From the NCBI GenBank assembly GCA_963778655.1, contig CAVZVA010000010.1:1576924-1640923 (forward strand): a stretch of 64,000 bases of DNA. Reading direction: 5' to 3'. The stretch comes from an uncultured delta proteobacterium (GTDB lineage Bacteria > Myxococcota_A > Polyangia > Polyangiales > JAFGIB01). Positions 5,977 through 40,049 of this stretch are shown piece by piece (position 1 is the first letter of the stretch; every line of letters starts with the position of its first letter). Made by a program: the position numbers and the translations under genes. The notes below the pieces were generated by a model. It was given only the letters and a program-made list of their open reading frames with translations, was not told where the DNA came from and did no database searches.

Positions 5977-6031
5977 AAGCCTCGCGAGCTGGCAAGAAGT
6001 CGGGCCCGGCGACGCTCGGACGCGATCACGC

Positions 6032-12507: not shown

Positions 12508-12852
12508 ATGACTGCGCACAGCATTCCGATCCTGACCACGTTCGAGGCGCCGCCCGGCTCCGAGGTCGCGCGCGTGCTGGGCCCGTGCTGGGGCATCACC
12601 GTGCGCTCGCGCAGCGTGGTCGGCACCGCCTGTGCCGGCTGCCAGCAGGTATTCGGCGGCGAGATCTCCGCGCTGACCGCGCTGGCGACCGAATCGCGCA
12701 GCGAGGCCATGAACCGGTTGGAACGCCACGCGATCGGCATGGGCGCCAACGCCGTGCTCGGCATGCGCTTCGACTCGGGCGAGCTGATGCAGAACACCAA
12801 CGAGATCGTCGCCTACGGTACGGCCGTCGTGCTGACTGCCGCGCGCGGCTGA
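12508..12852 (+). CDS. YbjQ/UPF0145 (heavy-metal-binding domain) family protein
   Basis: 114 aa. 'VARVLGPCWGITVRSRS...FGGEISALTALATESRSEAMNRLERHAIGMGANAVLGMRFD...IVAYGTAVVL' matches the YbjQ family pattern. Confidence 0.75.
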   Translation: MTAHSIPILTTFEAPPGSEVARVLGPCWGITVRSRSVVGTACAGCQQVFGGEISALTALATESRSEAMNRLERHAIGMGANAVLGMRFDSGELMQNTNEIVAYGTAVVLTAARG

Positions 12853-17180: not shown

Positions 17181-18299
17181 CTAGCGAGCTCGCGGGGTGG
17201 CGGCCGCGGTCGCACCGCCGTCGCGCCGGCCGGGTGTGAACACGTACAGCACGCTCGGCTCGGTGGCGCGCACGCGCAACGCGTTGTCCGGCGGCACCAA
17301 GACCAGCATCCGGCTGTGCAAGGGCGTGTCGGTGGGCGAGAGCAGCCGGGCCGTGCCCTGGGCAACGTACACCACACGCGGCGTGTCCACGCCAGCGAGA
17401 TCAGCCTCGCCGCGCAGCAGCCACGCCGCCATCTTGCCGTCCATGATGGGCAGCGTGTCCAGTCGCGACATCTCGTCCTGCCCGAGCCGCTTCAGCAAGG
17501 CCGCCGGCTCGTAGAACCCGGGCGCGGCTCCCCGCTGCAGGCGAGGATCGTCCTGCTCGACGTACAGGTTCCCGGCGAAAGGCGGCGAGGCGAACACCAG
17601 GTTGGCCTGCATGTGCGCCTGGTCGTGATTGATCCACTTGTGGCCGCACAATGGCGGCGAGGCGATCAGGCTGCCCGGCTCGGGCGTGCGGCGCACGCGC
17701 TGCGTGGCGGCGCCGGGTGCGCCGTAGATCTGCAACACCTCGGGCGCTCCGGACAGGATCACGGTGGCTTCGTAGGCCGTTCGATGGATGTGCAGCGGGC
17801 AAGTCTGGCCAAACCCGAGCGCGTGCATGTGAACGGTGCCGTCGCGGCTTCCGAAATACGTCTCGGATGCGTCCGCCTGATCGTGGAAGTGCTGGCTCAG
17901 CAGCGCGAAGCGCGCGGCCAGGTCGATGACCTGCACCGGGGGCTTCGGCTTCGGCGCTGGCGGGCCAGCGACGCGACTCGTCTTGGTCGGCACGCTCGGG
18001 CTGGCCGCACCCGCGCCCGCGTGCTGCAGCGCGAAGCTCAGGCCGCCGATCACCAGCAGCAGGCCGATCGTCACCACCCGGTAGAACAGCAGGGTGCGGC
18101 GGGTGGGCGGCGCTGCGGCGGCGGAGGGCGGGGGGCGTGGCGGAGTGCCGCTGGTCAAGCTCCGATCTTCTCGCGCCCGAGCCGCGCGGGTCAAGACCGC
18201 GCGCTCGCTGGCGCTCGGCTTGCGCTGCTTGCGCGGCGGACGTCGTTCCGGGCGCGGGGCGAAGCCGCGGCGCAATTCGCGGCGCGAAGGGTATAGCAT
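17181..18299 (-). CDS. membrane-anchored cupin-domain protein
   Basis: Arg/Pro-rich N-terminus, one TM ('LLFYRVVTIGLLLVIGGLSFAL'), then a cupin-like core 'GFGQTCPLHIHRTAYEATVILSG...GHKWINHDQ'. The start is uncertain. Confidence 0.5.
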   Translation of the reverse strand: MLYPSRRELRRGFAPRPERRPPRKQRKPSASERAVLTRAARAREDRSLTSGTPPRPPPSAAAAPPTRRTLLFYRVVTIGLLLVIGGLSFALQHAGAGAASPSVPTKTSRVAGPPAPKPKPPVQVIDLAARFALLSQHFHDQADASETYFGSRDGTVHMHALGFGQTCPLHIHRTAYEATVILSGAPEVLQIYGAPGAATQRVRRTPEPGSLIASPPLCGHKWINHDQAHMQANLVFASPPFAGNLYVEQDDPRLQRGAAPGFYEPAALLKRLGQDEMSRLDTLPIMDGKMAAWLLRGEADLAGVDTPRVVYVAQGTARLLSPTDTPLHSRMLVLVPPDNALRVRATEPSVLYVFTPGRRDGGATAAATPRAR

Positions 18300-18306
18300 T
18301 TGCAGC

Positions 18307-20397: not shown

Positions 20398-20499
20398 GGC
20401 AGCCGCTGGCCGAGCGCCGCGGCCAAACCGGGCGACCGGCCGCGCCCGCGATCGGTCGCGCCAACGCCCGCGGCCCGGTGTAAGCTCGGCCCCCCGCTC

Positions 20500-21198
20500 A
20501 TGGATCCCGCCGGCGAGAAGGTGCTCGAGGTTCGCGACCTCACGGTGACCCTCGAGAACCACGTCGTTCTCGAGGATCTGTCGTTCAGCGTCCGGGCCGG
20601 GGAGATCCTGACCATCCTGGGGCCCAACGGCGCGGGCAAGACGGTGCTGCTGCGCGCGCTGCTCGGCGTGCTGCCGTACTCGGGCTCGATTCACTGGAAG
20701 CAGGGCACGCGCATCGGCTACGTGCCGCAACGCCTGCCGTACATCCGCGACGTGCCCGTCAGCGTGGGCGACTTCTTCGCGCTCAAGCACAGCTCGGCCG
20801 AGGAGGCGCGGCACATGCTGCAGGCCGTGGGGCTCGACGCGGAGGTGGCGGCCAAGCGCGTGGGCGACGTGTCCTCCGGACAGTTCCAGCGCATCTTGAT
20901 CGCGTGGGGTCTGGTGGGCGATCCCCACGTGCTGCTGTTCGACGAGCCCACCACCGGCGTCGACGCCAGCGGCGAGGAGACCGTGTACGCGCTACTGGCG
21001 CGGCTGCACCGCGAGCGCCAGCTGACCATGCTCCTGGTTACGCACGACCTGGCGGTGGCGGCCCGGCTCTCGTCCACCGTGCTGTGCCTGAACCGGCGGC
21101 CGGTGTGCCACGGTCCCCCGCTCGAGGTGCTCACGCCCGAGAGCCTGCGGCGCTTGTACGGGACCGAGGTGCGGTACCACCAGCACAGCCACGAGTAG
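20500..21198 (+). CDS. metal (Zn/Mn-type) ABC transporter ATP-binding protein
   Basis: Walker A 'GPNGAGKT', signature 'VSSGQFQRILIA', Walker B 'LLFDEPTTGVD'. Size and layout resemble ZnuC/MntA. Confidence 0.8.
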   Translation: MDPAGEKVLEVRDLTVTLENHVVLEDLSFSVRAGEILTILGPNGAGKTVLLRALLGVLPYSGSIHWKQGTRIGYVPQRLPYIRDVPVSVGDFFALKHSSAEEARHMLQAVGLDAEVAAKRVGDVSSGQFQRILIAWGLVGDPHVLLFDEPTTGVDASGEETVYALLARLHRERQLTMLLVTHDLAVAARLSSTVLCLNRRPVCHGPPLEVLTPESLRRLYGTEVRYHQHSHE

Positions 21199-21201
21199 CG
21201 C

Positions 21202-21966
21202 ATGGGTGATCCCTTCGTCCTTGGCCTGATCTCCGGCTCGCTGATCGGCGGCGCGGCTGGCTACCTCGGCTCGCTGATGCTGGGGCGCCGCATGGCGCTG
21301 GTGGCCGGCCCGCTCGGTCACCTGACCCTGCCCGGCATTGCGCTGGCGCTGCTCTACGGCTTCGACGTGTCGCTCGGTGCGTTTCCGTTCGTGATCCTGG
21401 GCGTGCTGCTGATCTGGCTGTTCGAGATGAAGACCAAGCTGCCGATGGAGGCGCTGACGGCGCTGGTGTTCGCCTCCGGGGTCGCGCTCGCGTTTCTCTT
21501 TCTGCCGATCGAGCAGGCCGAGACGGCGCTGGTCGGCGACATCACGCGCACCACGCCGCGCGACGCGTGGCTCTCCGCCGCGGTGTCGCTGCTGGTCATC
21601 GCCGGCGTCAAGCGCATCTACCCGAAGCTGATTCTGATCGGCATCTCCGAGGACCTGGCCACCGCCGAGGGCGTCGACGTCAAGCGCCACAACCTGGCCT
21701 ACCTGCTCTTGATCTCGGTGATCGTCGCGCTCGGCGCCAAGATGGTGGGCGGGCTGCTGACGGCCGCGCTGGTGGCGATCCCGGCGGCAGTCGCGCGCAA
21801 CCTGGCCCGCGACCTGCGCCACTACGCCGCCACCGCGATCGGCGTGGGCGTGGGCTCCTCGCTGCTCGGAATCGCGCTGTTCCGCCTGACCGGCCTGCCG
21901 GCCGGCCCGTTGATCGTGCTGGTGAGCGCGGCGGCCTTCCTGGCCTCGCTGCCCTTCGTGCGCTGA
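21202..21966 (+). CDS. ABC-3 family metal transporter permease (ZnuB/MntB-like)
   Basis: 254 aa, about 8 TM. 'ISEDLATAEGVDVKRHNLAYLLLISVIVALGAKMVGGLL' is typical of ABC-3 permeases. It starts 3 nt after the ATPase gene. Confidence 0.8.
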   Translation: MGDPFVLGLISGSLIGGAAGYLGSLMLGRRMALVAGPLGHLTLPGIALALLYGFDVSLGAFPFVILGVLLIWLFEMKTKLPMEALTALVFASGVALAFLFLPIEQAETALVGDITRTTPRDAWLSAAVSLLVIAGVKRIYPKLILIGISEDLATAEGVDVKRHNLAYLLLISVIVALGAKMVGGLLTAALVAIPAAVARNLARDLRHYAATAIGVGVGSSLLGIALFRLTGLPAGPLIVLVSAAAFLASLPFVR

Positions 21967-26785: not shown

Positions 26786-28456
26786 ATGTGCTCCGGGGCT
26801 CGGGTGGGTGGCTGGGCGTGCTGCGTGCTGTGGCTGGGCGCTTGCTCGGGCACGATTCACCAGGCGCAGGGTCGGGCGCGGCCCGGGGGGGCGGCGCCGG
26901 CTATGGCTGGTGGGGTCGCCGGCACGGGCGCGGCGGCCGGCGGCGCGCCGTTCGTGGCGGCGGCCAGCGTGGCGCGCAGGCTCTCCCGCGCCGAGCTCGA
27001 CAACACGCTACGCGACCTGCTGGGCGACGACAGCGCGCCGGCCACGCGCTTGCTGGCCGAAGAGCTGTATTCGCCCTATGACAACGACTACACCACGCAG
27101 GCCGCGTCGGGCGCGCTGATCGACTCGCTCGAGGCGATGGCGACCGACGTCGCGGCGCGCGTGGTCGCCGACCCGGGGCTGCGCGCGCGGCTTGTGCCGT
27201 GCACGCCTTCGGGGCCGGGCGATGCCGCGTGCTTCCGCCAGTTCGTAGGCAGCTTTGGACGCCGCGCCTTGCGCCGGCCGCTCACCAGCCAGGAGCTGGA
27301 CGCGTACCAGACGCTGCTCGACTACGCGACCGAGGACAACCCGGCGGTGCCTCACGATTTCTACACCGCGGTCGAGCTCACGCTGCGCTCGGTGCTGCAG
27401 GACCCGGAGTTTCTCTACCGCATCGAGGTCGGCACGCCGACCGCGACCGCTTCGGTGGATGCGCTCGACGACTACGAGATTGCGGCGCGCCTGAGCTACC
27501 TGCTATGGGGCAGCACGCCCGACGACGCCCTGCTGGACGATGCCGACGCCGGCCGGCTGCAGGTCCCCGCGGGCCGGCGCGCAGCGGCCGAGCGCCTGCT
27601 CGCCGACCCCCGCGCCCGCGCGCAGCTACACCGCTTTCACGCGATGTGGTTGGGTTATCGCGCGATTCCGCAGCCGCCCGAGCTGACGGCCGAGCTGCAG
27701 CGCGAGACCACCGCGCTGATCGACCGCATCGTGTTCGACGAGCCGCAGAGCTATCTTAACCTGTTCACCTTCCCGCAGACCCGGCTCGACGACGCGCTGG
27801 CCGATCACTACGGGCTGCCGCGGCCGGCGGGCGGCGACGGCTGGGTCGACTACGGCGACAGCGGCCGCGCGGGAATTCTCTCGCACGGCAGCGTCCTGGG
27901 CGCGTTCAGCAAGTTCAGCGACACCAGTCCCACCCAGCGCGGGATCCTGATCCGCACCCGGCTGCTGTGCCAGACGATCGGCCGGCCGCCCGCCAACGTC
28001 ATGGCCGACAAGCCGCCGGGCGACAACAGCGCGGTGTGCAAGTACGACCGTTACGCCGAGCACCGCGCGAACGCCGCGTGCGCCAGCTGTCACGATCAGC
28101 TCGACCCGATCGGCTTCGGGCTGGAGCGCTACGACATCGGGGGCGTGTACCGCACGCACGATGAGGGCTTGCCGCAGTGCGCGATCTCGGGTCAGGGCGA
28201 GGTCAAGGGCTACGGGACCTTCAGCGGCCCCGGTGAGCTCGGCAAGCTGCTGGTCGAGAAGGGGCTGGTGCAGCCCTGCATCGTGCGCCAGCTCTGGCAG
28301 TTCGCGAGCGGCCGGCCCGCCTTGCCCGAGGAGAGCGCGGAGATCGACGCGCTCAGCGCGGGCTTCGAGCAGCACGGCTACGCGCTGCAGCAGCTGCTGC
28401 TCGCCTACGTGGCGGAGCCGGCGTTCGCCCTGCGCCGCGAGCCGGAGATGATGTGA
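26786..28456 (+). CDS. multi-DUF (DUF1587/DUF1592/DUF1595/DUF1588/DUF1585-type) protein with CxxCH haem-c motif
   Basis: Signal 'WACCVLWLGAC'. 'RRLSRAELDNTLRDLLG', a central helical region, and 'CASCHDQLDPIGFGLERYDIGGVYR'. Family assignment is from memory of hallmark motifs, not an HMM run. Confidence 0.7.
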   Translation: MCSGARVGGWACCVLWLGACSGTIHQAQGRARPGGAAPAMAGGVAGTGAAAGGAPFVAAASVARRLSRAELDNTLRDLLGDDSAPATRLLAEELYSPYDNDYTTQAASGALIDSLEAMATDVAARVVADPGLRARLVPCTPSGPGDAACFRQFVGSFGRRALRRPLTSQELDAYQTLLDYATEDNPAVPHDFYTAVELTLRSVLQDPEFLYRIEVGTPTATASVDALDDYEIAARLSYLLWGSTPDDALLDDADAGRLQVPAGRRAAAERLLADPRARAQLHRFHAMWLGYRAIPQPPELTAELQRETTALIDRIVFDEPQSYLNLFTFPQTRLDDALADHYGLPRPAGGDGWVDYGDSGRAGILSHGSVLGAFSKFSDTSPTQRGILIRTRLLCQTIGRPPANVMADKPPGDNSAVCKYDRYAEHRANAACASCHDQLDPIGFGLERYDIGGVYRTHDEGLPQCAISGQGEVKGYGTFSGPGELGKLLVEKGLVQPCIVRQLWQFASGRPALPEESAEIDALSAGFEQHGYALQQLLLAYVAEPAFALRREPEMM

Positions 28457-30006
28457 GCGTGGCGATCAAGCTCAGGCGTCGTACGATCTTGAAGGGCCTG
28501 GGCGGGGCGGCGGTGGGCTTGCCGCTGCTCGAGTGCATGTTGAACGAGCACGGCACGGCCCTGGCGCAGAGCGCGCAGCCGCTGCCCCGGCGCTACGCGA
28601 TCGTGTTCGCGGGCCAGGCGCTCGGCGGCGACGACTACGAGAAGAACGAGTCGCTGGTGAACGGCCAGCGCATCACCGAGGACGGCCACCACATCGTGCC
28701 GCCGCAGTCGGGCGCGGGCTACGCGATCACCACGCCGCTGCGGCCGCTGCGCGACCTGCAGGGCGACTTCAACCTGGTCTCGGGCATGCGCATTCCCTAC
28801 AACGTCGACTCCGCCGACGCCGCGGACGTGCCGGCCGGCGGCGCGTTTCGCGATTTTCACGGCGGCGGCTGCTGCCCGCTGTTGTGCGGCACGCGCTCGC
28901 TCTCCCCGGAGTTCACTGCGCGCAGCATCACCTCCGACCAGCTGATCGCGCAGCTCAATCAGGGCAAGACGCCGCTGCCCTCGCTGGTGCTGCGCGCGCA
29001 GCCCTCGTTCTACCTTAGCGGCTACAGCTTCGCGGGGCGCCACCGCATCTCTTATCGGGGCGACGGCGATCCGATCGAGGCGCAAGACAGCCCGCAGACC
29101 GCCTATCAGTCGATCTTCGGCAACTTCATGCCCAGCGGCGCGGCCGACCAGGCCAAGCACGACTTCGAGCAGCGCTCGCGCAGGAGCGTGCTCGACCTCA
29201 TCACCCAGAAACGGGCGCGCGTGCTCGGCATGGTCGGGGCGGCCGATCACGCGCGCCTGCAGCGACACTTCGACGAGATCCGCGACCTCGAGCAGCGCAT
29301 CGCTGAGCTCTCCCCGACGGCCGCAGGCCAGTGCCAGCGCCCCGCGGACCCGGGCGTGGACCCCGGCATCGGCGGCGACAACGCAGGCGCCGGCTCGGAT
29401 GCGATCGCGACCAATACCGGCTACAGCGACGAGGACGCGCGCACGCGGGTGATGCTCGATCTGATCCACATGGCCTTCGTGTGCGACCTGACGCGCGCAG
29501 CCACGCTCCAGATCACCGCGTTCCAGTCGCACATGAACGTGTACCCGATCTCGGGCAACCTCGATTCGCCGATCGCGCTCAGCCGCCCCATCCGCGCCGA
29601 TCTGCACGAGGTCGGGCACAACGGCGACACCGAGTTCCGCGGCCAGCTCCCGGTCAGCCTGCTGCTGCAGTGGCACCTCGGCCACTACGGCTACCTGCTG
29701 GACAAGCTCAAGGCCACGCCGGAAGGCGCGGGCTCGGTGCTCGACAACGCCGTGGTGGTGTTCATGCCCGAGGCCGGACACGGCCGCCACCTCAACAGCC
29801 CCAGCGACACCAGTCCCAAGACCCACTCGGTCGAGGAGATGGTGCTGCTGGTCGGCGGTCGGTCCGGCGGTCTGGTGCCGGGCCGCCACATTCCCACCAG
29901 CGGCGCGCACCCGGCGCAGTGTCTGCTGAGCTGCATGCAGGCCGCGGGCTACAGCGGCGACAGCTTCGGCGAGGTCCAGGGTAACCTGCCCGAGCTGTTC
30001 AGCTGA
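28453..30006 (+). CDS. DUF1552 family protein with twin-arginine signal
   Basis: GTG 28453 overlaps the upstream stop (GTGA). Tat-type N-terminus 'KLRRRTILKGLGGAAVGLPLLE'. 'DLTRAATLQITAFQSHMN...LHEVGHNGD' resembles the DUF1552 core. Confidence 0.7.
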   Translation: MSVAIKLRRRTILKGLGGAAVGLPLLECMLNEHGTALAQSAQPLPRRYAIVFAGQALGGDDYEKNESLVNGQRITEDGHHIVPPQSGAGYAITTPLRPLRDLQGDFNLVSGMRIPYNVDSADAADVPAGGAFRDFHGGGCCPLLCGTRSLSPEFTARSITSDQLIAQLNQGKTPLPSLVLRAQPSFYLSGYSFAGRHRISYRGDGDPIEAQDSPQTAYQSIFGNFMPSGAADQAKHDFEQRSRRSVLDLITQKRARVLGMVGAADHARLQRHFDEIRDLEQRIAELSPTAAGQCQRPADPGVDPGIGGDNAGAGSDAIATNTGYSDEDARTRVMLDLIHMAFVCDLTRAATLQITAFQSHMNVYPISGNLDSPIALSRPIRADLHEVGHNGDTEFRGQLPVSLLLQWHLGHYGYLLDKLKATPEGAGSVLDNAVVVFMPEAGHGRHLNSPSDTSPKTHSVEEMVLLVGGRSGGLVPGRHIPTSGAHPAQCLLSCMQAAGYSGDSFGEVQGNLPELFS

Positions 30007-30216: not shown

Positions 30217-30507
30217 ATGATGAACGACGTCACCAAGAAGAAGGTGCTCACGCGGTTGCGCAAGATCGCCGGGCAGGTGGAGGGCCTGGCGCGGATGGTC
30301 GACCAGGACCGGTACTGCGTGGACGTGCTGCTGCAAGTTGCGTCCGCGCAAGGCGCGCTCGGCGAGGCCGGAAAGCTCGTGCTGCGCTCCCACGTCGAGA
30401 CCTGTGTCAGCGAGGCCATGAGCAGCGGCAAACCCGCCGCGCGCAAGCAGAAGGTCGATGAGCTGATGCAGGTCTTCTCCCGCTACGGCTGCATGGGCGG
30501 AAGGTGA
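30217..30507 (+). CDS. csoR: CsoR/RcnR family metal-sensing transcriptional repressor
   Basis: 96 aa. 'VLTRLRKIAGQVEGLARMVDQDRYCVDVLLQVASAQGALGEAGKLVLRSHVETC' has the family Cys...His...Cys ligand positions. It sits directly upstream of copA. Confidence 0.85.
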   Translation: MMNDVTKKKVLTRLRKIAGQVEGLARMVDQDRYCVDVLLQVASAQGALGEAGKLVLRSHVETCVSEAMSSGKPAARKQKVDELMQVFSRYGCMGGR

Positions 30508-30510
30508 GCC

Positions 30511-32985
30511 ATGGAGCGCGTGCACGAGCGTTGGCACCCCAAGCACGACTCGCCCGCCTTGCACACGGCCGAGCTCCCGGACCCGGTGTGCGGCATGCAG
30601 GTCCCCGCCGACTCGCCGCACCGTCTCGCGCACTCCGGCCTCGAGTATCGCTTCTGCAGCGCGGGCTGCTTGGGGAAGTTTCGCCGGGAGCCGTCGCGCT
30701 ATGTAGCAAGTGGAAAGGGCGGCCACGGCCCGAGCGCCGCCGGCGAGGCGGCTCCATACACCTGTCCCATGCATCCCGAGGTCCGGCAGCCGGGCCCCGG
30801 CAGCTGTCCCAAGTGCGGCATGGCGCTCGAGCCGGTCCAGGCCCCCGCGCCCGTCACGCGCGTCGAGTACACGTGTCCGATGCATCCAGCGATCGTCCGG
30901 GATGCGCCCGGGAGCTGCCCGATCTGCGGCATGGCGCTGGAGCCACGCAATGTCACCTCCGAGGCTCCCGCGGACAATTCCGAGCTGCGCGACATGACCC
31001 GTCGCTTCTGGCTCGCGGTCTCGTTCACGGTTCCGCTGTTGGTGATCGCGATGGGCATGTACGTGCCCGCTTTCGAGCGGCTGCTTGCGGCGGCGATGTC
31101 GATGCGCACGCGCGTCTGGTTGGAGCTCGCGCTCTCGACGCCGGTGTGCCTCTGGGCGGCCTGGCCCTTCTTCGTGCGCGCCGTGCAATCGGCGAAGCAC
31201 CGCAGCTTGAACATGTTCACCTTGATCGGGCTGGGCGTGAGCGTCTCCTACGGCTACAGCCTGGTCGCGGCCCTGTTGCCCGGGATCTTCCCCCCCTCGT
31301 TCCACGCTGCTTCCGGTGAGGTGGCAGTCTACTTCGAAGCCGCCGCAATGATCACGACGTTGATCCTGCTCGGCCAGGTGCTCGAGCTGCGCGCGCGCAG
31401 CCAGACTGGCGCTGCGATCAAGAAGCTGCTGGGGATGGCGGCCAAGTCGGCGCGACGCCTGCGCGAGGATGGCAGCGAAGAGGACGTGCCGCTCGAGGCC
31501 GTGCACACCGGCGATCGGCTGCGGGTTCGGCCCGGCGAGAAGGTTCCGGTGGACGGGGTGGTGCTCGAGGGGGCGAGCCATCTCGACGAGTCGATGGTCA
31601 CCGGCGAGCCCATCCCCGTGCACAAACAGGCCGGCGACACGGTGATCGGCGCGACCATCAACGGCACCGGCAGTCTGGTCATGCGGGCCGAGAAGGTCGG
31701 CGCCGAGACGTTGCTCTCGCGCATCGTCGCCATGGTCGCCGAGGCGCAGCGCAGCCGCGCGCCGATCCAGAAGCTGGCGGACATGGTGGCCGGGTACTTC
31801 GTGCCGGCGGTGCTGCTCGTGGCCGTTGTCACCTTCGTGATCTGGGCGGCGGTCGGTCCCCAGCCGCGCATGGCGCACGCCCTCGTCAATGCGGTGGCGG
31901 TGCTGATCATCGCCTGCCCGTGCGCGCTCGGCCTGGCGACCCCGATGTCGATCATGGTCGCTACGGGCAAAGGCGCCACGATCGGCGTGCTGTTCAAGAA
32001 CGCCGAGGCGATCGAGGTGCTGCGCAAGGTCGACACGCTCGTGGTCGACAAGACGGGCACGCTCACCGAAGGCAAACCCAAGCTGGTGAGCGTGGTGGCC
32101 GAAGGCGGCATCGAGGAAGCGACGTTGCTGCGCCTTGCGGCGACGCTTGAGCGCGGCAGCGAGCACCCGCTCGCGGCGGCCATCGTGAAGGGGGCCGAGG
32201 AGCGCGGGATCGAGCTGGCGAACGCGGAGGTGTTCGAGTCGGTGACCGGCAAGGGCGTCAAGGGCCGGGTCGACGGGCGTGAGGTCGCGCTCGGCAACCG
32301 TGCGCTGATGCAGAGTCTGGGCATCGACCCGGAGGCGTCGGTTGCGCGTGCCGACGGGCTGCGCGCCGACGGCCAAACGGTGATGTTCGTGGCGGTCGAC
32401 GGTCAGCCGGCCGGTTTGTTGGGCGTCGCCGACCCGATCAAGCAGAGCACCGCCGAGGCGATTGCAGCCCTTCACCAGGAGGGCGTCCGGATCGTGATGC
32501 TGACCGGAGACAGCAAGACCACGGCCCAGGCGGTCGCCGGGAAACTGAGCATCGATGAGGTGATCGCGGAGGTGCTGCCCGACCAGAAGGCGGACAAGGT
32601 CAAGCAGCTCCAGGCCGAGGGGCACATCGTCGCGATGGCTGGCGACGGCATCAACGACGCTCCGGCGCTCGCGCAGGCCCAGGTCGGCATCGCCATGGGC
32701 ACGGGCACCGACGTCGCGATGGAAAGCGCCGGTGTCACCCTGGTCAAAGGCGATCTTCGCGGGATTGCCCGCGCTCGGCGCCTGTCACGCATGACGATGG
32801 CCAACATCAAGCAGAATCTGTTCTTCGCGTTCATCTACAACAGCGCAGGCGTTCCGCTTGCGGCGGGAGCGCTGTACCCCGTGTTCGGCCTGCTGCTGAG
32901 CCCGGTCATCGCGGCCGCGGCGATGAGCGCGAGCTCCGTATCGGTGGTGAGCAACGCGCTGCGCCTGCGGGGAGCGGATCTGTGA
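30511..32985 (+). CDS. copA: copper-translocating P1B-type ATPase with YHS/TRASH plus two CPMHP...CPxCGM N-terminal metal-binding modules
   Basis: 824 aa. 'TGEPIPV', '[13 protein letters not shown]' (CPC), 'VDKTGTLT', 'MLTGD', '[11 protein letters not shown]'. The N-terminus has 'DPVCGMQV...[12 protein letters not shown]', '[26 protein letters not shown]' and '[26 protein letters not shown]'. Confidence 0.9.
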
Positions 32986-33065
32986 AGCTGCGAACCGCGG
33001 CCGTTGCGACCGCCGACGAGATCGGCGGCAGGCAGACTGCAGCACCCGACAAGGCAAGGTGAGGA

Positions 33066-33278
33066 ATGCACTACGGGTACGGCGGCGCCCAAATGGGTTG
33101 GATCTGGTGGCTTTTCTGCACGGCGGCCATCGTCGTCATCGTCTGGGCCGTGGCCAGGGTTGCGCTGGGGCCTCGCGGCAGCGGGGACTCCCCGGAGATC
33201 GTGCTCAAGCGCCGTTATGCCAAGGGCGAGATCGATCGAGAGACCTACGAGCGCATGCTTGCCGAGCTACGCAAGTAG
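33066..33278 (+). CDS. SHOCT-domain small membrane protein
   Basis: 70 aa. One TM ('WIWWLFCTAAIVVIVWAVA'), then 'EIVLKRRYAKGEIDRETYERMLAELRK', the SHOCT motif. Confidence 0.65.
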   Translation: MHYGYGGAQMGWIWWLFCTAAIVVIVWAVARVALGPRGSGDSPEIVLKRRYAKGEIDRETYERMLAELRK

Positions 33279-33567
33279 CGATCCCCGGATGCGTCGCTGA
33301 GCCATGCACCACCGTTGCGAACCCTCATGAGACTTGGGCACGACACGCAGCGGATCACGACTCGAATCGGGGCTGGGGGCCCGCTTCGGGCAGCAAAGCC
33401 GTGACCGCCATCGACCCTGTTTGCGGTATGCCGGTCGATGAGCTCGCGGAGAAACATCGCGCCGCAGCCCAGACCGCGGTCAGCAAGGTCGAGCAGCCGG
33501 TCAAGCGGAACACTCCCCGCGCGGGGCAGCTCGAAGCAGGCCGTGCGGTCTTTCACGCGGTACCGGG

Positions 33568-33793
33568 ATGACACAGCAGTGGCTCCAGCGCCTCGTCGAC
33601 TGCCACATCGCGGGTGCGGCTTCCGTGGGCAACAACATGCTGGAGATGGCATACTGCACCGCGCGTGCTCAAGGGCGTGAAGGCGATGGTGTCGTCGACA
33701 GGCAACGGCTTTGTGATCGACGTGACCTCCGATGATCCCGCGACTGCATCCGAGATCTGGAAACGCATGCAAGCGCTTGCCCCGCAGGGCTGA
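33568..33793 (+). pseudogene. possible small periplasmic metal-related ORF, apparently frameshifted (very tentative)
   Basis: One frame reads 'MTQQWLQRLVDCHIAGAASVGNNMLEMAYC' (ATG 33568). The next frame continues from about 33657 as 'PRVLKGVKAMVSSTGNGFVIDVTSDDPATASEIWKRMQALAPQG*' (stop 33791-33793). Neither piece reaches the 60-aa track threshold on its own. Confidence 0.25.
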
Positions 33794-33899
33794 CCGGAAC
33801 GAATCCAGGCGAGCGCGGTGGCCGACCGATGTTCGACTGTTTGATGTGCGCATGAGGAAAGACGAGGCGGGTTGCCCCAGGTGCACGGAGCGAAGGCGG

Positions 33900-35348
33900 A
33901 TGAAGCGAGCGCAATCTCTTGCCACAAACGTGCGACTCGGGCTGTTTCGCCTGGGCAAGGGCAACGGCCGCCTTACGACCGTGTGGCTTTGGGCCTGTCT
34001 GCTTGCCGCCGCGGCGCAGGCTCAGCAGGTGCCCGCAACCGCTGGCGCTCCGCGCGCGACGGAGCCGGCTGCTGGTGGTGGCGTTGCGCAGAGCGCGCCG
34101 CGGCCGGTCCAGTTGAGGCCGCTCGAGCCGGGCGCGCCGACCGCCCTCGCACCGCTGATCGCGCAGGCGCTGCAGAGACACCCGGCGTTGACCTCCGCAC
34201 GCAAGAGCGTGTCGGCGGCGCACGAGGCCCCTTCACGCGTCGCCGCGCTGCCCGATCCGGTGCTGGGTGTGGCGCTTCAGAACATCCGGTTTGATCAGCC
34301 GGGCCTCGACACCAGTCCGATGAGCGCGCTGCAGATCGGGCTGACGCAGGCCTTTCCCTTTCCCGGCAAGCTGAGTCGCAGGCGAGCGCTTGCGGAAGCC
34401 CAGGTGTCCACGGCCGAGCAGAAGCTGGCGCTCGCCCAGGCGCTGGTGAGCATCAACGTACAGCGCGCCTACTGGCGCCTGCGCTTCGCCGAGACCGCCG
34501 AGCGCGTCACGGCTCAGAGCGAGCAGCTGTTGGACAGCCTGACCAATGCGGTGCACATCCGCTTCGGCCTGGGGCAAGGCGCACAACAAGATGCGCTGCA
34601 GGCCGAGGTCGCCCACAGTCGCCTGCGGGCCATGCTCCAGGAGCGCCGCCAGGAGGTGCGCTCGGCGCGGCGCGGGCTCAGCGGCGCGGTGGGCCTTGCC
34701 GCGAGCACGCAGCTCTCCGCGAGCGACCCGGCTCCGACCCAACCTGCACGTCTCGACCGAGCTGCGCTGCTCGGCAGAGCGCGCCAGCAAAACCCCGCGA
34801 TCGCCCTGGCCCGTGCCCAGGCGCTCAGCGCGCGGCGAGGGGTGAGGGAGGCGGAGATGGACCGCTGGCCCGATTTTCAGATCGGCGTCGCGTATCGGAT
34901 CCGCCAGGCTTCGCCGGGCGACATGAGCCAGGGCGCGGACATGTTCGGGGTGACCTTTGCCACGTCGCTGCCGGTGTGGACCGCGAGCAAGCAAAGCGCC
35001 CGCGTGCGCCAGTCCTACGACGAGCTCGGCGCCGCGGACGCATCCCTGAACGATACGACCCTGGACGTGACCACACGGCTTTCCCAGTTGATCGATGTCG
35101 TGGATCGGCTCGACGAGCAGATCGCGCTCTACGACAGGGAGCTGGCGCCGGAGGCCAATCAGGCCCTGGACGCGAGCATCGAGGACTATCAGTTCGGGCG
35201 GGTCGAGTTCGTGTCGGTGCTCAAGAACTGGGAAGTCGACCTCGAAACCGGGCTGGCCCGCGTGCGCCTGCTGACCGACCGCGCCGAGCGCGTGGCCGAA
35301 GTCTACGCGCTGGTCGACGGCGCGTCCGCGAAGGGGGCCGCACCATGA
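33900..35348 (+). CDS. cusC: outer-membrane efflux protein (TolC/CusC family)
   Basis: Start at ATG 33900 after GGAGCGAAGGCGG. Signal 'TTVWLWACLLAAAAQAQQ'. Two OEP-type repeats ('LIAQALQRHPALTSARKSVSAA', 'LLGRARQQNPAIALARAQALSARRGVREAE'). The stop overlaps the cusB ATG (ATGA). Confidence 0.8.
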   Translation: MKRAQSLATNVRLGLFRLGKGNGRLTTVWLWACLLAAAAQAQQVPATAGAPRATEPAAGGGVAQSAPRPVQLRPLEPGAPTALAPLIAQALQRHPALTSARKSVSAAHEAPSRVAALPDPVLGVALQNIRFDQPGLDTSPMSALQIGLTQAFPFPGKLSRRRALAEAQVSTAEQKLALAQALVSINVQRAYWRLRFAETAERVTAQSEQLLDSLTNAVHIRFGLGQGAQQDALQAEVAHSRLRAMLQERRQEVRSARRGLSGAVGLAASTQLSASDPAPTQPARLDRAALLGRARQQNPAIALARAQALSARRGVREAEMDRWPDFQIGVAYRIRQASPGDMSQGADMFGVTFATSLPVWTASKQSARVRQSYDELGAADASLNDTTLDVTTRLSQLIDVVDRLDEQIALYDRELAPEANQALDASIEDYQFGRVEFVSVLKNWEVDLETGLARVRLLTDRAERVAEVYALVDGASAKGAAP

Positions 35349-36940
35349 AGTCGCGCGCACTCGGCCTTTGCCTCGTGCTCGCAGCGCTGGCCGGCAGCTG
35401 CAACCAGGCGCCGGGAGCTGCGCCGACCGAGCAGGCCAAGCCCGGGGCCAAGGTGCTCTACTACCGCTCGCCCATGGACCCGTCGTTCATCTCCAAGAAT
35501 CCGGGCAAGGACGCGATGGGCATGAAGCTCGTGCCTGTGCACGAGGGCGATCCGGGGGCGAACCTCGACCTGATCTCGCTCAACGGCGCGGTCATCCAGC
35601 GCATGGGCGTGCGCGTGGCGGAGGTGAAGCAGGTGGCGCTCACGCGCGTGGTGCGCGCGCTGGGGCGCGTCGAATTCGACGAGTCTCGCGTGACCACCGT
35701 CAACATGAAATTCGACGGCTGGATCGAGAAGCTCTGGGTCGACGAGACCGGCCAATTTGTCCGCAAGGGCGCGCCGCTGTTCGCGATCTATAGCCCCGAG
35801 CTGCTCGCGAGCGAGGAAGAGTACCTGCAGATCCTGCAGGCGACGGCCGCAGGTCCCCATTCGGAGCACTTGCTGCGCGCCGCGCGCCAGCGTCTGCTGC
35901 AGTTCGACGTACCGGCCTCGTTGGTCGAGCGCATCACGCGCACGCGCAAGGCCGAACGCCGCGTGGTGGTGACCTCGCCCGCGCGCGGCTACGTGATCCA
36001 CAAGACCGCGTTCGAGGGCACGTTCGTCAAGAAGGGCGCCAACCTGTTCACGCTCGGCGACCTCGGCGCGCTGTGGGTCGTCGCGGACGTGTTCGAGCTC
36101 GATGCGCCGTGGGTCATGGCAGGGCAGCGCGCGACGGTGGAGCTCGAGTACCTCCCCGGGCAGCCCCAGGAAGCGACCGTCGACTACGTGTACCCGACGC
36201 TCGATCAAAAGACGCGCGCGCTGCAGGTGCGGCTGGTCTTGCCCAACCCCGACGTGGCGCTCAAGCCGGGCATGTTCGCGACCGTCCGGATTCACACCCA
36301 GCCGGTCGGGGTCACGCTGGCGGTGCCCAGCGAGGCGGTGATCCACAGCGGAGAGCGCAGCATCGTGTTCGTCTCCAAGGGGGAGGGTCGATTCGAGCCG
36401 CGCGAGCTCGAGCTCGGGGTGCTCGGCGACGACATGTACCAGGTGCGCAGCGGGCTGCAGGAGGGCGAGCAGGTGGTCGTCAGCGGCGAATTCCTGCTCG
36501 ACAGCGAGAGCCGGCTCAAGGAAGCCGTGAAGAAGATGCTCGGGGGCAATCTCGCGACCGGCGCGGCCATGCCCGCCGCTGCGCAGGGGAAGGGCGACGC
36601 CGGCGTGCAGATGCCGTCGATGCCGGGCATGGCCATGCCGCCCTCGAAGCCGCCTCCGGCAACGAAACCGGCGCCCGAACGGAAGGTGCGGCAGATGCCG
36701 TCGATGCCGGGCATGCAGATGCCGCCGGCGCAGCCAGTCAAGCGCCCGAAACCCGCGGCCTCGGGCGCCCCGCCCGCTCCGAAACCGGTGCCTGAAGAGA
36801 AGGCGCGACCGATGCCGTCGATGCCGGGCATGCAGATGCCACCGGCGCAGCAAGGCAAGAGCCCGAAGCCCGCGGCTTCGGGCGCCACGCCCGCGACCTC
36901 GAAGCACTCGGACGAGGATCATGCTCGGCCGCCTGATTGA
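35345..36940 (+). CDS. cusB: CusB-type periplasmic adaptor (MFP) of a heavy-metal RND pump, with Met/Pro-rich C-terminal repeat tail
   Basis: Lipoprotein-like start 'MKSRALGLCLVLAALAGSC'. The conserved CusB/SilB N-terminal motif 'LYYRSPMDPSFISKNPGKDAMGMKLVPV'. HlyD-type barrel-sandwich region. The tail carries three 'MPSMPGM(A/Q)MPP' units. Confidence 0.85.
   Translation: MKSRALGLCLVLAALAGSCNQAPGAAPTEQAKPGAKVLYYRSPMDPSFISKNPGKDAMGMKLVPVHEGDPGANLDLISLNGAVIQRMGVRVAEVKQVALTRVVRALGRVEFDESRVTTVNMKFDGWIEKLWVDETGQFVRKGAPLFAIYSPELLASEEEYLQILQATAAGPHSEHLLRAARQRLLQFDVPASLVERITRTRKAERRVVVTSPARGYVIHKTAFEGTFVKKGANLFTLGDLGALWVVADVFELDAPWVMAGQRATVELEYLPGQPQEATVDYVYPTLDQKTRALQVRLVLPNPDVALKPGMFATVRIHTQPVGVTLAVPSEAVIHSGERSIVFVSKGEGRFEPRELELGVLGDDMYQVRSGLQEGEQVVVSGEFLLDSESRLKEAVKKMLGGNLATGAAMPAAAQGKGDAGVQMPSMPGMAMPPSKPPPATKPAPERKVRQMPSMPGMQMPPAQPVKRPKPAASGAPPAPKPVPEEKARPMPSMPGMQMPPAQQGKSPKPAASGATPATSKHSDEDHARPPD
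36611..36900 (+). repeat. three tandem imperfect coding repeats (21-nt core atgccgtcgatgccgggcatg) in the cusB 3' end
   Basis: Exact 21-mer at 36611, 36695 and 36812 (spacing 84 and 117 nt). Copies 2 and 3 remain near-identical for about 40 nt and similar beyond that ('...KRPKPAASGAPPAPKP' versus '...KSPKPAASGATPATSK'). Confidence 0.8.
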
Positions 36941-39900
36941 GATCTCGGTCGCGAACCGCTTCCTGGTGGTCGTGTTGGCCGTGGTCGCGCTGGCCGGCGG
37001 GGTGCTGGCGATGCGCGCCACGCCGCTCGACGCGATCCCGGACCTGTCCGACGTGCAGGTCATCATCTTCACCGAGTACCCGGGCCAGTCGCCCCAGGTG
37101 GTCGAGGACCAGGTCACATACCCGCTCACCAGCACCATGCTCTCGGTGCCGCGGTCGAAGGTCGTGCGCGGCTACTCCTTCTTCGGTCTGTCCTTCGTCT
37201 ACGTCATCTTCGAGGACGGCACGGACATGTACTGGGCACGCAGCCGCGTGCTTGAGTACCTCAACTACGCCGCCGGCCGCCTCCCGGAGGGGGTCACCCC
37301 TGCGTTGGGGCCGGACGCGACGGGCGTGGGCTGGGTGTACGAGTACATCCTCAAGTCCGACAACCACCACGACCTCGCCCAGCTGCGCTCGATCCAGGAC
37401 TGGCAGATCCGCTACCAGCTGCAGCAGGTCCCCGGCGTCGCCGAGGTTGCGAGCATCGGCGGATTCGTCAAGCAGTATCAGGTCACTGTCGACCCGCAGA
37501 AATTGCAGGCGTTCGGCATCCCGCTGGCCAAGGTGCGCGAGGCGATCAAGCGCAGCAACCGCGACGTGGGCGGTCGCGTCGTGGAGCTCGCCGAAACCGA
37601 GTTCATGGTGCGAGGCCTCGGTTACATCAAGTCGCTCGACGACATCCGCGAGATCCCGCTCGCGGTCAGCCCCGACCACGTCCCGGTGCGCATCGCCGAC
37701 GTGGCCACGGTCGGCGTCGGGCCGGAGATCCGGCGCGGGCTGGCCGACTGGAACGGCGAGGGCGAGGTCGTGGGCGGCATCGTCGTGATGCGCTACGGGC
37801 AGAACGCCAAGCAAGTGCTCGACGACGTCAAGCGCCAGGTCGCCAAGATTCAGCAGACGCTGCCCAAGGGGGTCACGATCGAGGCCGCCTACGATCGCTC
37901 GGGGCTGATCGAGCGCGCGGTGAAGACACTGCAGGGCAAGATCGTTGAGGAGTGCATCATCGTCGCGCTGGTCTGCATGCTGTTCTTGCTGCACGCGCGC
38001 AGCGCGCTGGTCGTGATCTTCACGTTGCCGGCCGGGATCCTGCTCGCCTTCATCATCATGCGCCTGCAGGGCATCAACGCCGACATCATGAGCCTGGGCG
38101 GAATTGCGATCGCGATCGGCGCCATGGTCGATGCCGCGATCGTGATGATCGAGAACATGCACAAGCACATCGAGCACGCGGAGCCCGACGCGGACCGCTG
38201 GCAGCTCGCGGTCGAGGCCTCCAAGGAAGTGGGCCCGTCGTTGTTCTTTTCGCTGCTCATCATCGCGCTGTCGTTTATGCCGGTATTCGCCCTGCAGGCG
38301 CAGGAAGGACGGCTGTTCAAACCGCTCGCGTACACCAAGACCTACGCGATGATCGCCGCCGCGCTGCTCAGCGTGACCGTGGTGCCGATCCTGATGGGGT
38401 ATCTGGTCCGCGGGCGCATTCGGGCCGAGTCGCGCAACCCGATCAACCGCGCGCTGGTCTTCGTCTATCGACCACCCTTACGCGCGGCGTTGCGCCATCC
38501 CGTGGTGACCTTCGGCGTGGCGCTGCTCGCGCTCGCGGGGGCCGTATGGCCGGTGTCGCAGCTCGGCAGCGAGTTCATGCCGCCCCTGGACGAAGGGGAC
38601 CTTCTGTATATGCCGTCCATGCTGCCAGGGGTCTCGATCACGAAGGCGCGGCAGGTGCTTCAGCAGACCGACCGCATCATCAAGAGCTTCCCGGAGGTCG
38701 ACCACGTGTTCGGCAAGGTGGGCCGTGCCGAGACGGCCACCGACCCGGCGCCGCTGAGCATGATCGAGACGGTGATCACGCTCAAGCCTCGTTCGCAATG
38801 GCGTGCCGGCATGACCAGCGAGAAGCTCGTGCGCGACCTCGACAGCGCGGTGCGTTTCCCGGGGCTGACGAACGCGTGGACCATGCCGATCAAGACGCGC
38901 ATCGACATGCTGGCGACCGGCATCAAGACGCCGGTCGGCATCAAGGTGATGGGCAGCGACCTGAATGAGCTCGCGAGGATTTCCGAGGCGATCGAAGCGG
39001 AGCTGCGCAACGTGCCGGGCACCGCGTCGGTGTACGCGGAGCGCGTCACCGGCGGCAACTTCCTCGACATCCGCATCAAACGCACCGCAGCGGCGCGCTA
39101 CGGCATCCAGGTCGACGACATCCAGAACGTCATTTCTTCGGCGATCGGCGGCATGAACGTGGGTCGCACGGTCGAAGGTCTGGAGCGCTACCCGATCAAC
39201 GTGCGCTATCCGCGTGAGCTCCGGCAATCGCTCAGCGCGATCAGGAGCGTGCTGGTCGATTCGCCGATGGGCCACTCGGTGCCCCTGGGTGAGCTTGCCG
39301 ACATCGGCTTCGTCAAGGGCGCGCCGGTCGTGAAGTCCGAGGGCGCGCAACCTACGGCGTGGATCTATGTCGATGTCACCGGCTCGGACATCGGCGGCTA
39401 CGTGCAGCGGGCCAAGCAGGTGGTGGCCCACAAGGTGAAGCTGCCTGCCGGCTACAGGCTGCTGTGGAGCGGACAGTTCGAGTACATGCAGCGCGCGGCC
39501 CAGCGCCTGCGGCTGATCGTGCCTGCGACCTTGCTGCTGGTGTTCATCCTGTTGTACCTGAATTTCGGCAGGCTCACGGAGTCGCTGTTGGTGATGTCGC
39601 TGTTGCCGTTTGCCCTGATCGGGGGCGTGTGGCTCGTGTATCTATTGCACTACGAGCTGAGCGTGGCCGTTGGGGTCGGCTTCATCGCGTTGGCCGGCGT
39701 ATCGGCCGAGATGGGCGTCGTCATGCTCGTGTACCTCGACCACGCCCTGCGCGACGCGCCGGCGGCAACCGACGGCGGGCCGCCGTCGCCGTCGGCGCTG
39801 CACACCACCGTTCTGGCCGGGGCCGCGGGCCGCGTGCGGCCGCTCGCGATGACGGTCTCGGCCATCATCTTCGGCCTGCTGCCGATCATGTGGAGCAGCG

Positions 39901-40049
39901 GGACCGGCGCGTCCGTCATGAAGCGGGTCGCGGCACCCATGATCGGAGGCATGATTTCGAGCACGCTCGTCACCCTGCTGGTGCTTCCAACGGTCTACAG
40001 CGTGATCGCATGCCGGCGCTTGCGAAGGGCCGAGCCCGCGCAGCGCTGA
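36921..40049 (+). CDS. cusA: CusA/CzcA family heavy-metal efflux RND transporter
   Basis: 1042 aa. N-terminus 'MLGRLIEISVANRFLVVVLAVVAL...AIPDLSDVQVIIFTEYPGQSPQVVEDQVTYPLT'. RND 12-TM, two-large-loop layout. ATG 36921 (GAGGA upstream) lies 20 nt inside cusB. Confidence 0.9.
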   Translation: MLGRLIEISVANRFLVVVLAVVALAGGVLAMRATPLDAIPDLSDVQVIIFTEYPGQSPQVVEDQVTYPLTSTMLSVPRSKVVRGYSFFGLSFVYVIFEDGTDMYWARSRVLEYLNYAAGRLPEGVTPALGPDATGVGWVYEYILKSDNHHDLAQLRSIQDWQIRYQLQQVPGVAEVASIGGFVKQYQVTVDPQKLQAFGIPLAKVREAIKRSNRDVGGRVVELAETEFMVRGLGYIKSLDDIREIPLAVSPDHVPVRIADVATVGVGPEIRRGLADWNGEGEVVGGIVVMRYGQNAKQVLDDVKRQVAKIQQTLPKGVTIEAAYDRSGLIERAVKTLQGKIVEECIIVALVCMLFLLHARSALVVIFTLPAGILLAFIIMRLQGINADIMSLGGIAIAIGAMVDAAIVMIENMHKHIEHAEPDADRWQLAVEASKEVGPSLFFSLLIIALSFMPVFALQAQEGRLFKPLAYTKTYAMIAAALLSVTVVPILMGYLVRGRIRAESRNPINRALVFVYRPPLRAALRHPVVTFGVALLALAGAVWPVSQLGSEFMPPLDEGDLLYMPSMLPGVSITKARQVLQQTDRIIKSFPEVDHVFGKVGRAETATDPAPLSMIETVITLKPRSQWRAGMTSEKLVRDLDSAVRFPGLTNAWTMPIKTRIDMLATGIKTPVGIKVMGSDLNELARISEAIEAELRNVPGTASVYAERVTGGNFLDIRIKRTAAARYGIQVDDIQNVISSAIGGMNVGRTVEGLERYPINVRYPRELRQSLSAIRSVLVDSPMGHSVPLGELADIGFVKGAPVVKSEGAQPTAWIYVDVTGSDIGGYVQRAKQVVAHKVKLPAGYRLLWSGQFEYMQRAAQRLRLIVPATLLLVFILLYLNFGRLTESLLVMSLLPFALIGGVWLVYLLHYELSVAVGVGFIALAGVSAEMGVVMLVYLDHALRDAPAATDGGPPSPSALHTTVLAGAAGRVRPLAMTVSAIIFGLLPIMWSSGTGASVMKRVAAPMIGGMISSTLVTLLVLPTVYSVIACRRLRRAEPAQR

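Follow-up and report, generated by a model that had tools for sequence, protein, structure and literature searches.

Background

Periplasmic adaptors of heavy-metal efflux pumps of the resistance-nodulation-division (RND) type may bear extra N- and C-terminal domains, and the C-terminal CusF-like domain of Cupriavidus metallidurans SilB is a cited case (PMC4446572, which refers to Bersch et al. 2011). In gammaproteobacteria, 22 CusB-CusF fusions have been counted, with CusF present in 26% of the genomes and CusB in 53% (PMC3548706). For SilB of Salmonella (pMG101), a peptide of residues 401-430 is disordered both free and Ag-bound and binds two Ag+ (Babel et al. 2021, PMC8686694), with a Kd of ~4 µM at M416-M419 (PMC8686694). 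In full-length SilB, nuclear magnetic resonance mapped a second Ag+ site within a C-terminus described as very flexible (Arrault et al. 2023, PMC10407283). Here, we describe the C-terminal tail of a CusB adaptor encoded in 64,000 nucleotides of an uncultured delta proteobacterium (GenBank assembly GCA_963778655.1, contig CAVZVA010000010.1, positions 1,576,924 to 1,640,923; hereafter, the window). The tail presents three near-identical methionine clusters and is probably a functional Cu/Ag-binding element.

Methionine-rich regions are known from several copper and silver proteins. The MxMxxM motif of Ctr1 is selective for Cu(I)/Ag(I) (PMC9117721). Met-rich domains have been described as low-affinity and dynamic 'Cu sponges' that probably do not serve as fixed receptor sites and whose role is called elusive, and the Cu(I) affinity of single tris-Met sites is low relative to CusF (PMC11840665). 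Each pump carries six adaptors (PMC7558416).

The original prediction for this window took the known metal site of CusB to be N-terminal. That statement is incomplete: SilB has a second, C-terminal Ag+ site (PMC8686694, PMC10407283), and CusF fusions exist. Thus, the idea of a C-terminal metal module is not new. Judged by its sequence, the window tail is an enlarged, repeated, Pro/Lys-rich variant of the documented SilB-type feature; it would extend that feature and leave the accepted mechanism of Cus/Sil pumps unchanged.

As in Salmonella SilB, a disordered stretch –here a predicted one– lies directly past the last adaptor helix and adjoins the RND pump, with Met (and His) residues in M-x-x-M or M-x-M spacing as would-be ligands of a second site beyond the N-terminal three-Met site. 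The two tails also differ. The SilB stretch has ~30 residues, two sites and no repeats, and it occurs alongside SilF and SilE, whereas here 131 residues contain three near-identical four-Met clusters (MPSMPGMxMPP) with Pro/Lys spacers, and CusF-targeted searches of the window detected no cusF/silF or silE. Binding was measured for SilB and we infer it here; our searches, which were weak ones, detected no homology between the tails.

C. metallidurans SilB and the CusB-CusF fusions present a metal-binding module on the same adaptor end, but the fused module is a folded domain of the oligonucleotide/oligosaccharide-binding (OB) type with an H...W-x-M-x-M site (CusF_Ec), whereas the window tail is predicted coil and has no His/Trp site. 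Compared to E. coli CusB (PDB 3NE5, 3H94), the window protein has the same four-domain fold, N-terminal PM...MxM site, three-Met CusA partner, and outer-membrane factor. However, E. coli CusB ends 7 residues past the last helix and depends on soluble CusF, while 131 further residues are found here.

Other likenesses are looser. The PcoB N-terminal domain (PMC12509749) is also a poorly conserved, disordered, ligand-rich extension on a copper-efflux component, and it tolerates changes in sequence and length, just as CusB-family tails vary widely. It belongs, however, to another protein and another terminus, has essential His ligands (the window tail has 2 His and is Met-based), and stabilises PcoA. 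The CueO Met-rich domain, the CopI His-Met tail, SilE, and the Ctr1 Mets motifs share the thioether-only M-x-M and M-x-x-M spacing suited to the oxidising periplasm (PMC11840665, PMC9117721), together with multivalent, low-affinity, and dynamic binding, which the window tail would presumably show as well. Those regions belong to oxidases, cupredoxins, sponge proteins, and importers, whereas this tail sits on a pump adaptor. The MPSMPGMxMPP unit, in which nearly all Met are followed by Pro, is not described in the literature cited here.

Anatomy of the CusB tail

The cusB gene (35345-36940; all window features are on the plus strand unless stated otherwise) encodes 531 residues and is identical to database protein P0001. 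The longer open reading frame (ORF) 34976-36940 translates exactly into the sequence quoted in the original prediction, and the gene proper begins at 35345. Residues 1-400 (35345-36544) form the adaptor core, with a Pfam HlyD_D23 match (4e-74), a lipoprotein-type signal (LAGSC), and a four-domain adaptor fold. E. coli CusB (PDB 3ne5_B) aligns over residues 20-400 (E=1e-40) and terminates 7 residues past the point where the tail starts. Thus, residues 401-531 (131 residues, 36545-36937) are an extension.

We ran AlphaFold on CusB with a 60-sequence alignment. The core was modelled with pLDDT scores (predicted local distance difference test) >90 over most of its length (283 residues at 90 or above), up to a terminal helix at 381-399, and it showed the barrel-sandwich, beta-barrel, helical hairpin, and membrane-proximal domains of a membrane-fusion protein. 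Beyond the helix, the tail was predicted as coil, with mean pLDDT of 39-64 in 10-residue blocks. This model agrees with the disorder previously proposed for the tail.

The N-terminal metal site is retained in the core, as proposed: SPMDPSF...DAMGMKLVP aligns with E. coli DPMYPNT...PFMDMDLVP, so that PM...MGM faces the E. coli motif. The site consists of M44, M58, and M60, and over the 60 homologues M60 is invariant and M44 and M58 nearly so. Their E. coli counterparts are M49, M64, and M66 in what we take to be precursor numbering. The gene lies between an outer-membrane factor gene and a three-Met CusA gene. By these features, the protein is a CusB/SilB-type heavy-metal RND periplasmic adaptor, for which Cu(I)/Ag(I) efflux itself is predicted.

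The tail contains 13 Met, 32 Pro (24%), 11 Lys, 5 Arg, and 2 His, has no Cys, and bears a net charge of +8. The K:R ratio is 11:5 in the tail vs. 17:26 in the core. No Pfam family matches it at E<=0.01. The three clusters announced by the original prediction are present in translation: MPSMPGMAMPP at 36611-36643 and MPSMPGMQMPP at 36695-36727 and 36812-36844. Each one offers four thioethers in the spacing M-x-x-M-x-x-M-x-M, and each is built on an exact 21-nt core, ATGCCGTCGATGCCGGGCATG, starting at 36611, 36695, and 36812. Three occurrences compare with 0.01 expected; none of 100 shuffles reached three, and no further match was found in the 64 kb with 2 mismatches allowed. Among GC3-supported ORFs of the window (GC3, G+C content at third codon positions), that of cusB, through its tail, is the only one in which a 12-residue stretch holds at least 4 Met; the sole other instance comes from an antisense ORF within cusA.

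Clusters 2 and 3 belong to a tandem duplication (36663-36894) of a 117-nt, 39-codon unit composed of a Lys/Pro/Ala spacer and a Met cluster, one cluster within each unit. Tandem Repeats Finder reported a period of 117, 2.0 copies, 87% matches, no indels, and a score of 366; a second repeat search returned three 45-nt copies at 78-100% identity. Copy 1 has only the Met cluster in common with copies 2 and 3. The spacers are KP-rich, e.g., SKPPPATKPAPERK and KRPKPAASGAPPAPKPVPEEK.

Changes between copies 2 and 3 are unevenly distributed. Of the 39 codons, 15 are altered: one synonymous and no non-synonymous change falls in the Met core (13 codons), and five synonymous and nine non-synonymous ones fall in the 26 spacer codons. 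The contrast holds for non-synonymous changes (0/13 vs. 9/26, Fisher p=0.018) and for any codon change (1/13 vs. 14/26, Fisher p=0.006). Such unevenness argues against a near-neutral origin of the tail, in which slippage or unequal recombination would have duplicated the 117-nt unit outside the fold with little or no function. That origin would suit a duplication as recent as this one (87% identity, no indels), and Pro/Ala-rich disordered segments arise readily in GC-rich genomes. The Met runs, however, go against the mutational bias, since ATG is AT-rich and the window has 71% GC; Met and Lys codons both oppose that bias, and the tail prefers Lys where the core prefers Arg.

Coding status and overlap with cusA

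The tail is read in the cusB frame. GC3 over the tail is 0.84 in this frame, compared to 0.61 and 0.70 for the other two codon positions and 0.92 for the cusB core, and its codon choice agrees with that of the core. Other frames and antisense genes across the tail were considered and rejected, as GC3 backs the cusB frame only.

A separately assembled Logan contig (run ERR11571143) matches the window at 100% identity along 4380 nt, a stretch that contains the repeats. Among the sequences searched, the exact tail is carried by one genome and this one identical contig. Tandem repeats in metagenome-assembled genomes (MAGs) can collapse or expand, and the two assemblies may share reads, so a mis-assembled repeat, or a true cusB stop located earlier, was weighed. 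We hold such an artefact to be extremely improbable: the frame is open throughout with the GC3 signal in that frame only, the second assembly is identical, and the 13% divergence between the repeat units lets reads be placed without ambiguity. Moreover, the 3' end meets the conserved overlap with cusA described below, as it does in relatives.

The last 7 codons of cusB overlap the start of cusA by 20 nt (36921-36940). Between the cusA ATG at 36921 and the upstream in-frame stop there is no other start codon, and residue 4 of CusA pairs in the alignment with position 11 of the E. coli CusA chain (3t51_A), near its N-terminus. A purine-rich GGACGAGGA lies just 5' of this ATG. The tail-coding region holds the ATG of cusA and a putative ribosome-binding site, in line with the original prediction. 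In the overlap, the cusB ending ...DHARPPD* is an out-of-frame reading of cusA MLGRLIE, with the TGA stop within AT-TGA-G (Ile-Glu codons). The same arrangement is found in relatives L002 (~11325-11344) and L084 (11307-11338).

Two consequences follow. The recurrent 'HA..', 'DAR', and '..H' endings of many homologue tails arise because the end of cusB overlaps the conserved N-terminus of cusA; thus, we give no weight to the terminal His/Asp as metal ligands, the last 7 codons being dictated by cusA. Second, the last helix and the cusA overlap are fixed, so the tail is an expansion segment between two constrained anchors.

We also considered a regulatory DNA or RNA role as the main explanation for the repeat. 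No promoter-like or terminator-like site was found in 36300-37100, and with one 10-bp hairpin as the only notable feature this role was rejected. The hairpin, GCCCGAAGCC-CGC-GGCTTCGGGC at 36861-36883, is perfect and lies in the copy-3 spacer; its copy-2 equivalent is imperfect, and it is probably incidental.

C-termini of related adaptors

Searches with the tail alone gave no matches. With phmmer, there were 0 matches in 1.84 billion representatives, a negative that composition correction makes uninformative; a word-indexed search at E<=10 also gave 0 matches and did not recover the parent protein, hence it is a weak negative on homology to the SilB tail. For this reason, we used a position-anchored comparison of homologue tails instead. 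From 120 proteins found by protein search and 80 loci from GTDB genomes, we kept 195 relatives, those with a recognisable anchor motif whose 3' end was complete.

All are conserved through "FLLDSES-RLKEAxxKML" and highly variable beyond this anchor. Essentially no tail is present in 29 of the 195, and 138 have a low-complexity tail. The others carry HMBD domains (15), CusF-like domains (7), or a DUF3347-like domain (6), with Pfam confirmation for one or two exemplars of each domain class: two CusF_Ec copies in L074 (E=8e-49), two to three HMBD in L018 and L058 (1e-28 to 1e-31), and DUF3347 in L041 (2e-6). The CusF-like domains, one or two per protein, are at the same position in L044, L062, L065, L074, L076, L078, and L080. 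That known metal modules (CusF_Ec, HMBD, DUF3347, Met tails) fill this site in relatives favours a metal-related role for the window tail too.

The low-complexity tails are enriched in methionine as a group. Met makes up 6.3% of their residues vs. 2.3% in the cores (2.8x, paired Wilcoxon p=6e-11), His is enriched 3.0x, and L, I, V, F, W, and Y show a 3-30x depletion. The tails contain 128 M-x(1-2)-M pairs, whereas shuffling them yields 48.6±6.5 and at most 69. Independent origins of repeated Met units are seen several times in other tails, e.g., in P0012, P0097, L009, and L016.

Orthologues carry clusters reminiscent of those in the window: MPS in P0002 and P0005, AMPGMEPP in P0017, MEDMPGMPGM in P0031, and three copies of AMPGMDES in P0097. 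In P0002, P0005, P0017, and P0031, at 64-73% identity, the MPS or MPGM-type cluster is single, which suggests that the window lineage multiplied a single ancestral Met cluster. Checking close orthologues, as the original prediction proposed, thus gave a divided answer: the exact tail is absent from all known ones, while several have a single cluster of the same type.

The comparison also bears on the near-neutral expansion introduced above. Arguments for it are that the tail is found in one genome, that the closest orthologues (59-73% identity) extend a median of 31 residues past the terminal helix, and that tail length and sequence vary greatly, down to relatives with no tail. Met enrichment and clustering across 138 independent tails are not expected from it, nor are bona fide metal domains at the same site in other lineages. 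Taken with the uneven changes between copies and the codons opposing GC bias, we regard this explanation as fairly unlikely.

Several further observations were made on the relatives. A degenerate-DNA scan of Joint Genome Institute (JGI) metagenomes for the 11-residue motif gave two matches, in soil metagenome contigs L082 and L083, both antisense to an unrelated Met/Gly-rich gene, and they were set aside as chance. The ORF concerned (L082 1309-2820, L083 3371-4882) contains GGMSMPGMEGMGGFMAGMMGG, has the motif match on the antisense strand only, and adjoins thioredoxin-like and ferredoxin-like genes, as read from ORF translations. Near a related cusCBA, L069 encodes at 4422-6413 on the minus strand a 663-residue protein with MGHMNMPGMAQGNM and GMKGMAGMPGMSNMNMPE; thus, the MPGM element recurs in Met-rich proteins encoded beside related pumps.

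Mostly in Desulfobacterales-type CusB, the C-terminus holds one to three acidic units of the 'DDFF(D/E)DME' type per tail, each with one Met and two Phe (L006, L019, L025, L038, L046, L047, L048, L054, and L079); these units make up a second kind of conserved tail repeat. A helical domain of ~180 residues is fused to CusB in L005, L024, L037, L041, L057, L059, L060, and L064; it ends in CPM..WLQ..NPYxGxxMLxCG, and Pfam DUF3347 matches it in L041 (2e-6), not in L064. At the same position, this domain may be a further, as yet uncharacterised metal module. Finally, L084 has a second cusCBA set (17275-21338), 7 kb downstream of the first, whose adaptor presents YtkA and HMBD near the N-terminus and a further HMBD at the C-terminus.

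CusF near the pump

No cusF is visible in the gene block, in agreement with the original prediction. Within the 64-kb window, which covers part of a 1.78-Mb contig and leaves room for a cusF elsewhere in the genome, tblastn with E. coli CusF gave a best E of 0.27, a custom hidden Markov model (HMM) whose seeds were E. coli CusF together with the fused domains gave a best ORF E of 9.2, and a Pfam scan of the small GC3-plausible ORFs found no CusF. The tail itself does not belong to the CusF family (PF11604; an OB fold of ~70 residues with His...Trp-x-Met-x-Met), as it has no Pfam match and is predicted coil. It is not HMBD either (PF19335; CPMHP...CPxCGM), as it has no Cys and no Pfam match.

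With the same CusF HMM, a stand-alone cusF was found within 10 kb at 2 of the 80 related loci. Since cusF is rare near all relatives, its absence from the window is not specific to this locus. Both cusF-bearing loci also have adaptor C-terminal modules, a Met tail in L022 and two CusF-like domains in L078. PF11604 was absent from three Pfam-annotated neighbourhoods, with and without a tail, and tail-less P0059 is among the loci that have no cusF nearby. The anticorrelation between tails and cusF that had been proposed as a check was therefore not borne out, and with two cusF loci in 80 the comparison has no power.

Proposed function of the tail

We judge it a little better than an even bet that the tail is a tethered, multivalent, disordered periplasmic arm of CusB that binds Cu(I)/Ag(I). 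The csoR-copA-cusCBA context with an intact CusA three-Met site, described below, also favours this role, as do the precedents cited above for SilB, Ctr1, and Met-rich domains. The original prediction saw in the tail a built-in, CusF-like metal scavenger: the comparative evidence favours the metal-binding part, whereas the tail is not CusF-like in sequence or predicted fold.

The arm could work as follows. The membrane-proximal domain is formed by both termini, so the tail would begin beside the CusB N-terminal Met site and the periplasmic cleft of CusA. The Lys/Pro/Ala-rich spacers are probably extended and polyproline-II-like. Each cluster might hold one Cu(I) or Ag(I), weakly and dynamically, via 2-4 Met sulfurs, and the six CusB of a pump would bring up to 18 clusters sweeping the periplasm nearby. 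This would raise the local metal concentration and allow the ion to be passed to the higher-affinity N-terminal site of CusB or to the three-Met site of CusA. The likely sources of Cu(I) include the CopA-type ATPase of the same csoR-controlled block. The tail would thus do in cis part of the job of soluble CusF in E. coli, and may contribute to resistance. It may have grown by recent tandem duplication of the 39-codon unit, between the last CusB helix and the cusA start.

Several points weigh against this proposal. The contrast between cores and spacers comes from one copy pair (39 codons), and gene conversion among cores could also have produced it. The nearest orthologue, at 73% identity, does not have the exact tail, and with the tail in one genome only, long-term purifying selection is not demonstrable. 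Fewer than 3 Met are present in some 58% of the relatives' low-complexity tails; together with the 29 tail-less adaptors, this means that the module is dispensable. Met-rich tails are mostly acidic (median -0.115 per residue, 7 of 58 positive), whereas the window tail, at +8, is basic and Pro-rich and may behave unlike the majority. Lastly, the affinity of a single tris-Met site is low compared to CusF: 'uphill' delivery to tighter sites is plausible, but capture itself may be weak.

The tail could also bind metal without delivering it, as a sensor, gate, or local buffer. As a gate, the metal-free tail would rest on CusA/CusB and keep the pump resting until metal loading frees it, much as the C-terminus of Salmonella SilB is proposed to be released from SilA on activation (PMC10407283); no docking segment is evident in the sequence, however, and the spacers are not conserved. 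As a buffer, it would simply retain Cu(I) close to the membrane, in the manner of SilE or of the Met-rich 'sponge' of CueO. The clusters, three on each chain and 18 around each pump, would provide the capacity for it, Met-rich domains have been described as low-affinity, dynamic sponges (PMC11840665), and the second C-terminal site of SilB competes with SilE in a regulatory manner (PMC8686694). Relatives, however, have at this place CusF-type chaperone domains, whose known role is delivery (PMC4446572). Buffering and delivery are inseparable by sequence alone; overall, we consider a gate or buffer unlikely.

A mainly structural role has less to commend it. In that case, the Lys-Pro segments would form a spacer or tether similar to the proline-rich rod of TonB, touching peptidoglycan, the outer-membrane factor, or neighbouring adaptors, and the Met would be incidental or sacrificial antioxidants. 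The 24% Pro, the KP-rich spacers such as SKPPPATKPAPERK and KRPKPAASGAPPAPKPVPEEK, and the positive net charge, unlike that of most Met-rich tails, would fit. However, conservation is lowest in the spacers and highest in the Met clusters, and the family-wide signal is Met/His enrichment rather than a Pro/Lys pattern. In the predicted structure, the C-terminus emerges from the membrane-proximal domain, a long way from the outer-membrane factor. A tether is thus very unlikely in our view.

Should the tail take up Cu(I)/Ag(I) and transfer it, as we propose for the arm, it would show Cus-type pumps working without soluble CusF. Nearly all of the 80 related pumps have no CusF close by, and the protein is absent from most gammaproteobacterial genomes (PMC3548706). 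In that case, the tail would also be a natural model for soft-metal capture by multivalent, low-affinity thioether sites of disordered regions, with three near-identical four-Met units and variable spacers.

The adaptor C-terminus as a port for interchangeable metal modules is a more interesting by-product than the window tail itself. Tentatively, and with less confidence than for the arm, we suggest that the CusB-type C-terminus might be a general plug-in port for periplasmic modules capturing Cu(I)/Ag(I), which would feed the pump instead of soluble CusF in most phyla. Met-cluster tails would be the commonest and fastest-evolving modules, their valency tuned by tandem duplication between the two anchors. 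The window tail would then be an extreme, long-reach form with stiff Lys/Pro spacers that might receive Cu(I) straight from the CopA-type ATPase encoded alongside. One adaptor insertion point with lineage-specific modules would help to annotate metal-resistance operons and to design adaptor constructs.

The copper gene block

The block spans 30217-40049 as a single same-strand series: csoR, a CopA-like ATPase gene, a SHOCT gene, the outer-membrane factor gene, cusB, and cusA. It opens with a csoR-type copper-sensing repressor gene (30217-30507; Pfam Trns_repr_metal E=1.3e-27, GC3 0.91). The P1B-type, CopA-like ATPase (30511-32985) presents an N-terminal YHS and two HMBD, with Pfam scores of 9e-56 for E1-E2_ATPase, 5.5e-34 for Hydrolase, 6e-27 for HMBD (two stretches), and 6e-12 for YHS. 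The gap between the two genes is 3 nt.

Between the ATPase gene and cusC, a gene for a small SHOCT-domain membrane protein (33066-33278, 70 residues; Pfam SHOCT 1.7e-7) is also called on the Logan contig, and its translation has an N-terminal hydrophobic stretch. The cusC-like outer-membrane factor (33900-35348, 482 residues; Pfam OEP 3.6e-31) is supported by a gene call on L001, and its stop overlaps the cusB ATG by 4 nt. The heavy-metal RND pump gene cusA (36921-40049; Pfam ACR_tran 2.4e-233) encodes a protein that aligns with 1262 bits to E. coli CusA vs. 532 to ZneA. It keeps the periplasmic three-Met site, i.e., the Met of LLYMPS, APL(E/S)M, and RIDML in the alignment to E. coli CusA, which presumably correspond to M573, M623, and M672 in E. 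coli numbering.

Among the GTDB representatives retrieved, the best CusB match (70% identity) comes from an uncultured MAG of the Myxococcales. Immediately upstream of the copper genes, at 26786-30006, lie genes of the DUF1585/1587/1588/1592/1595 (PSD/PSCyt) and DUF1552 (HXXSHH) families, which are typical of Planctomycetota and Myxococcota. Some 18 kb upstream of the block, a YbjQ_1 'putative heavy-metal-binding' gene is found at 12508-12852 (1.7e-28).

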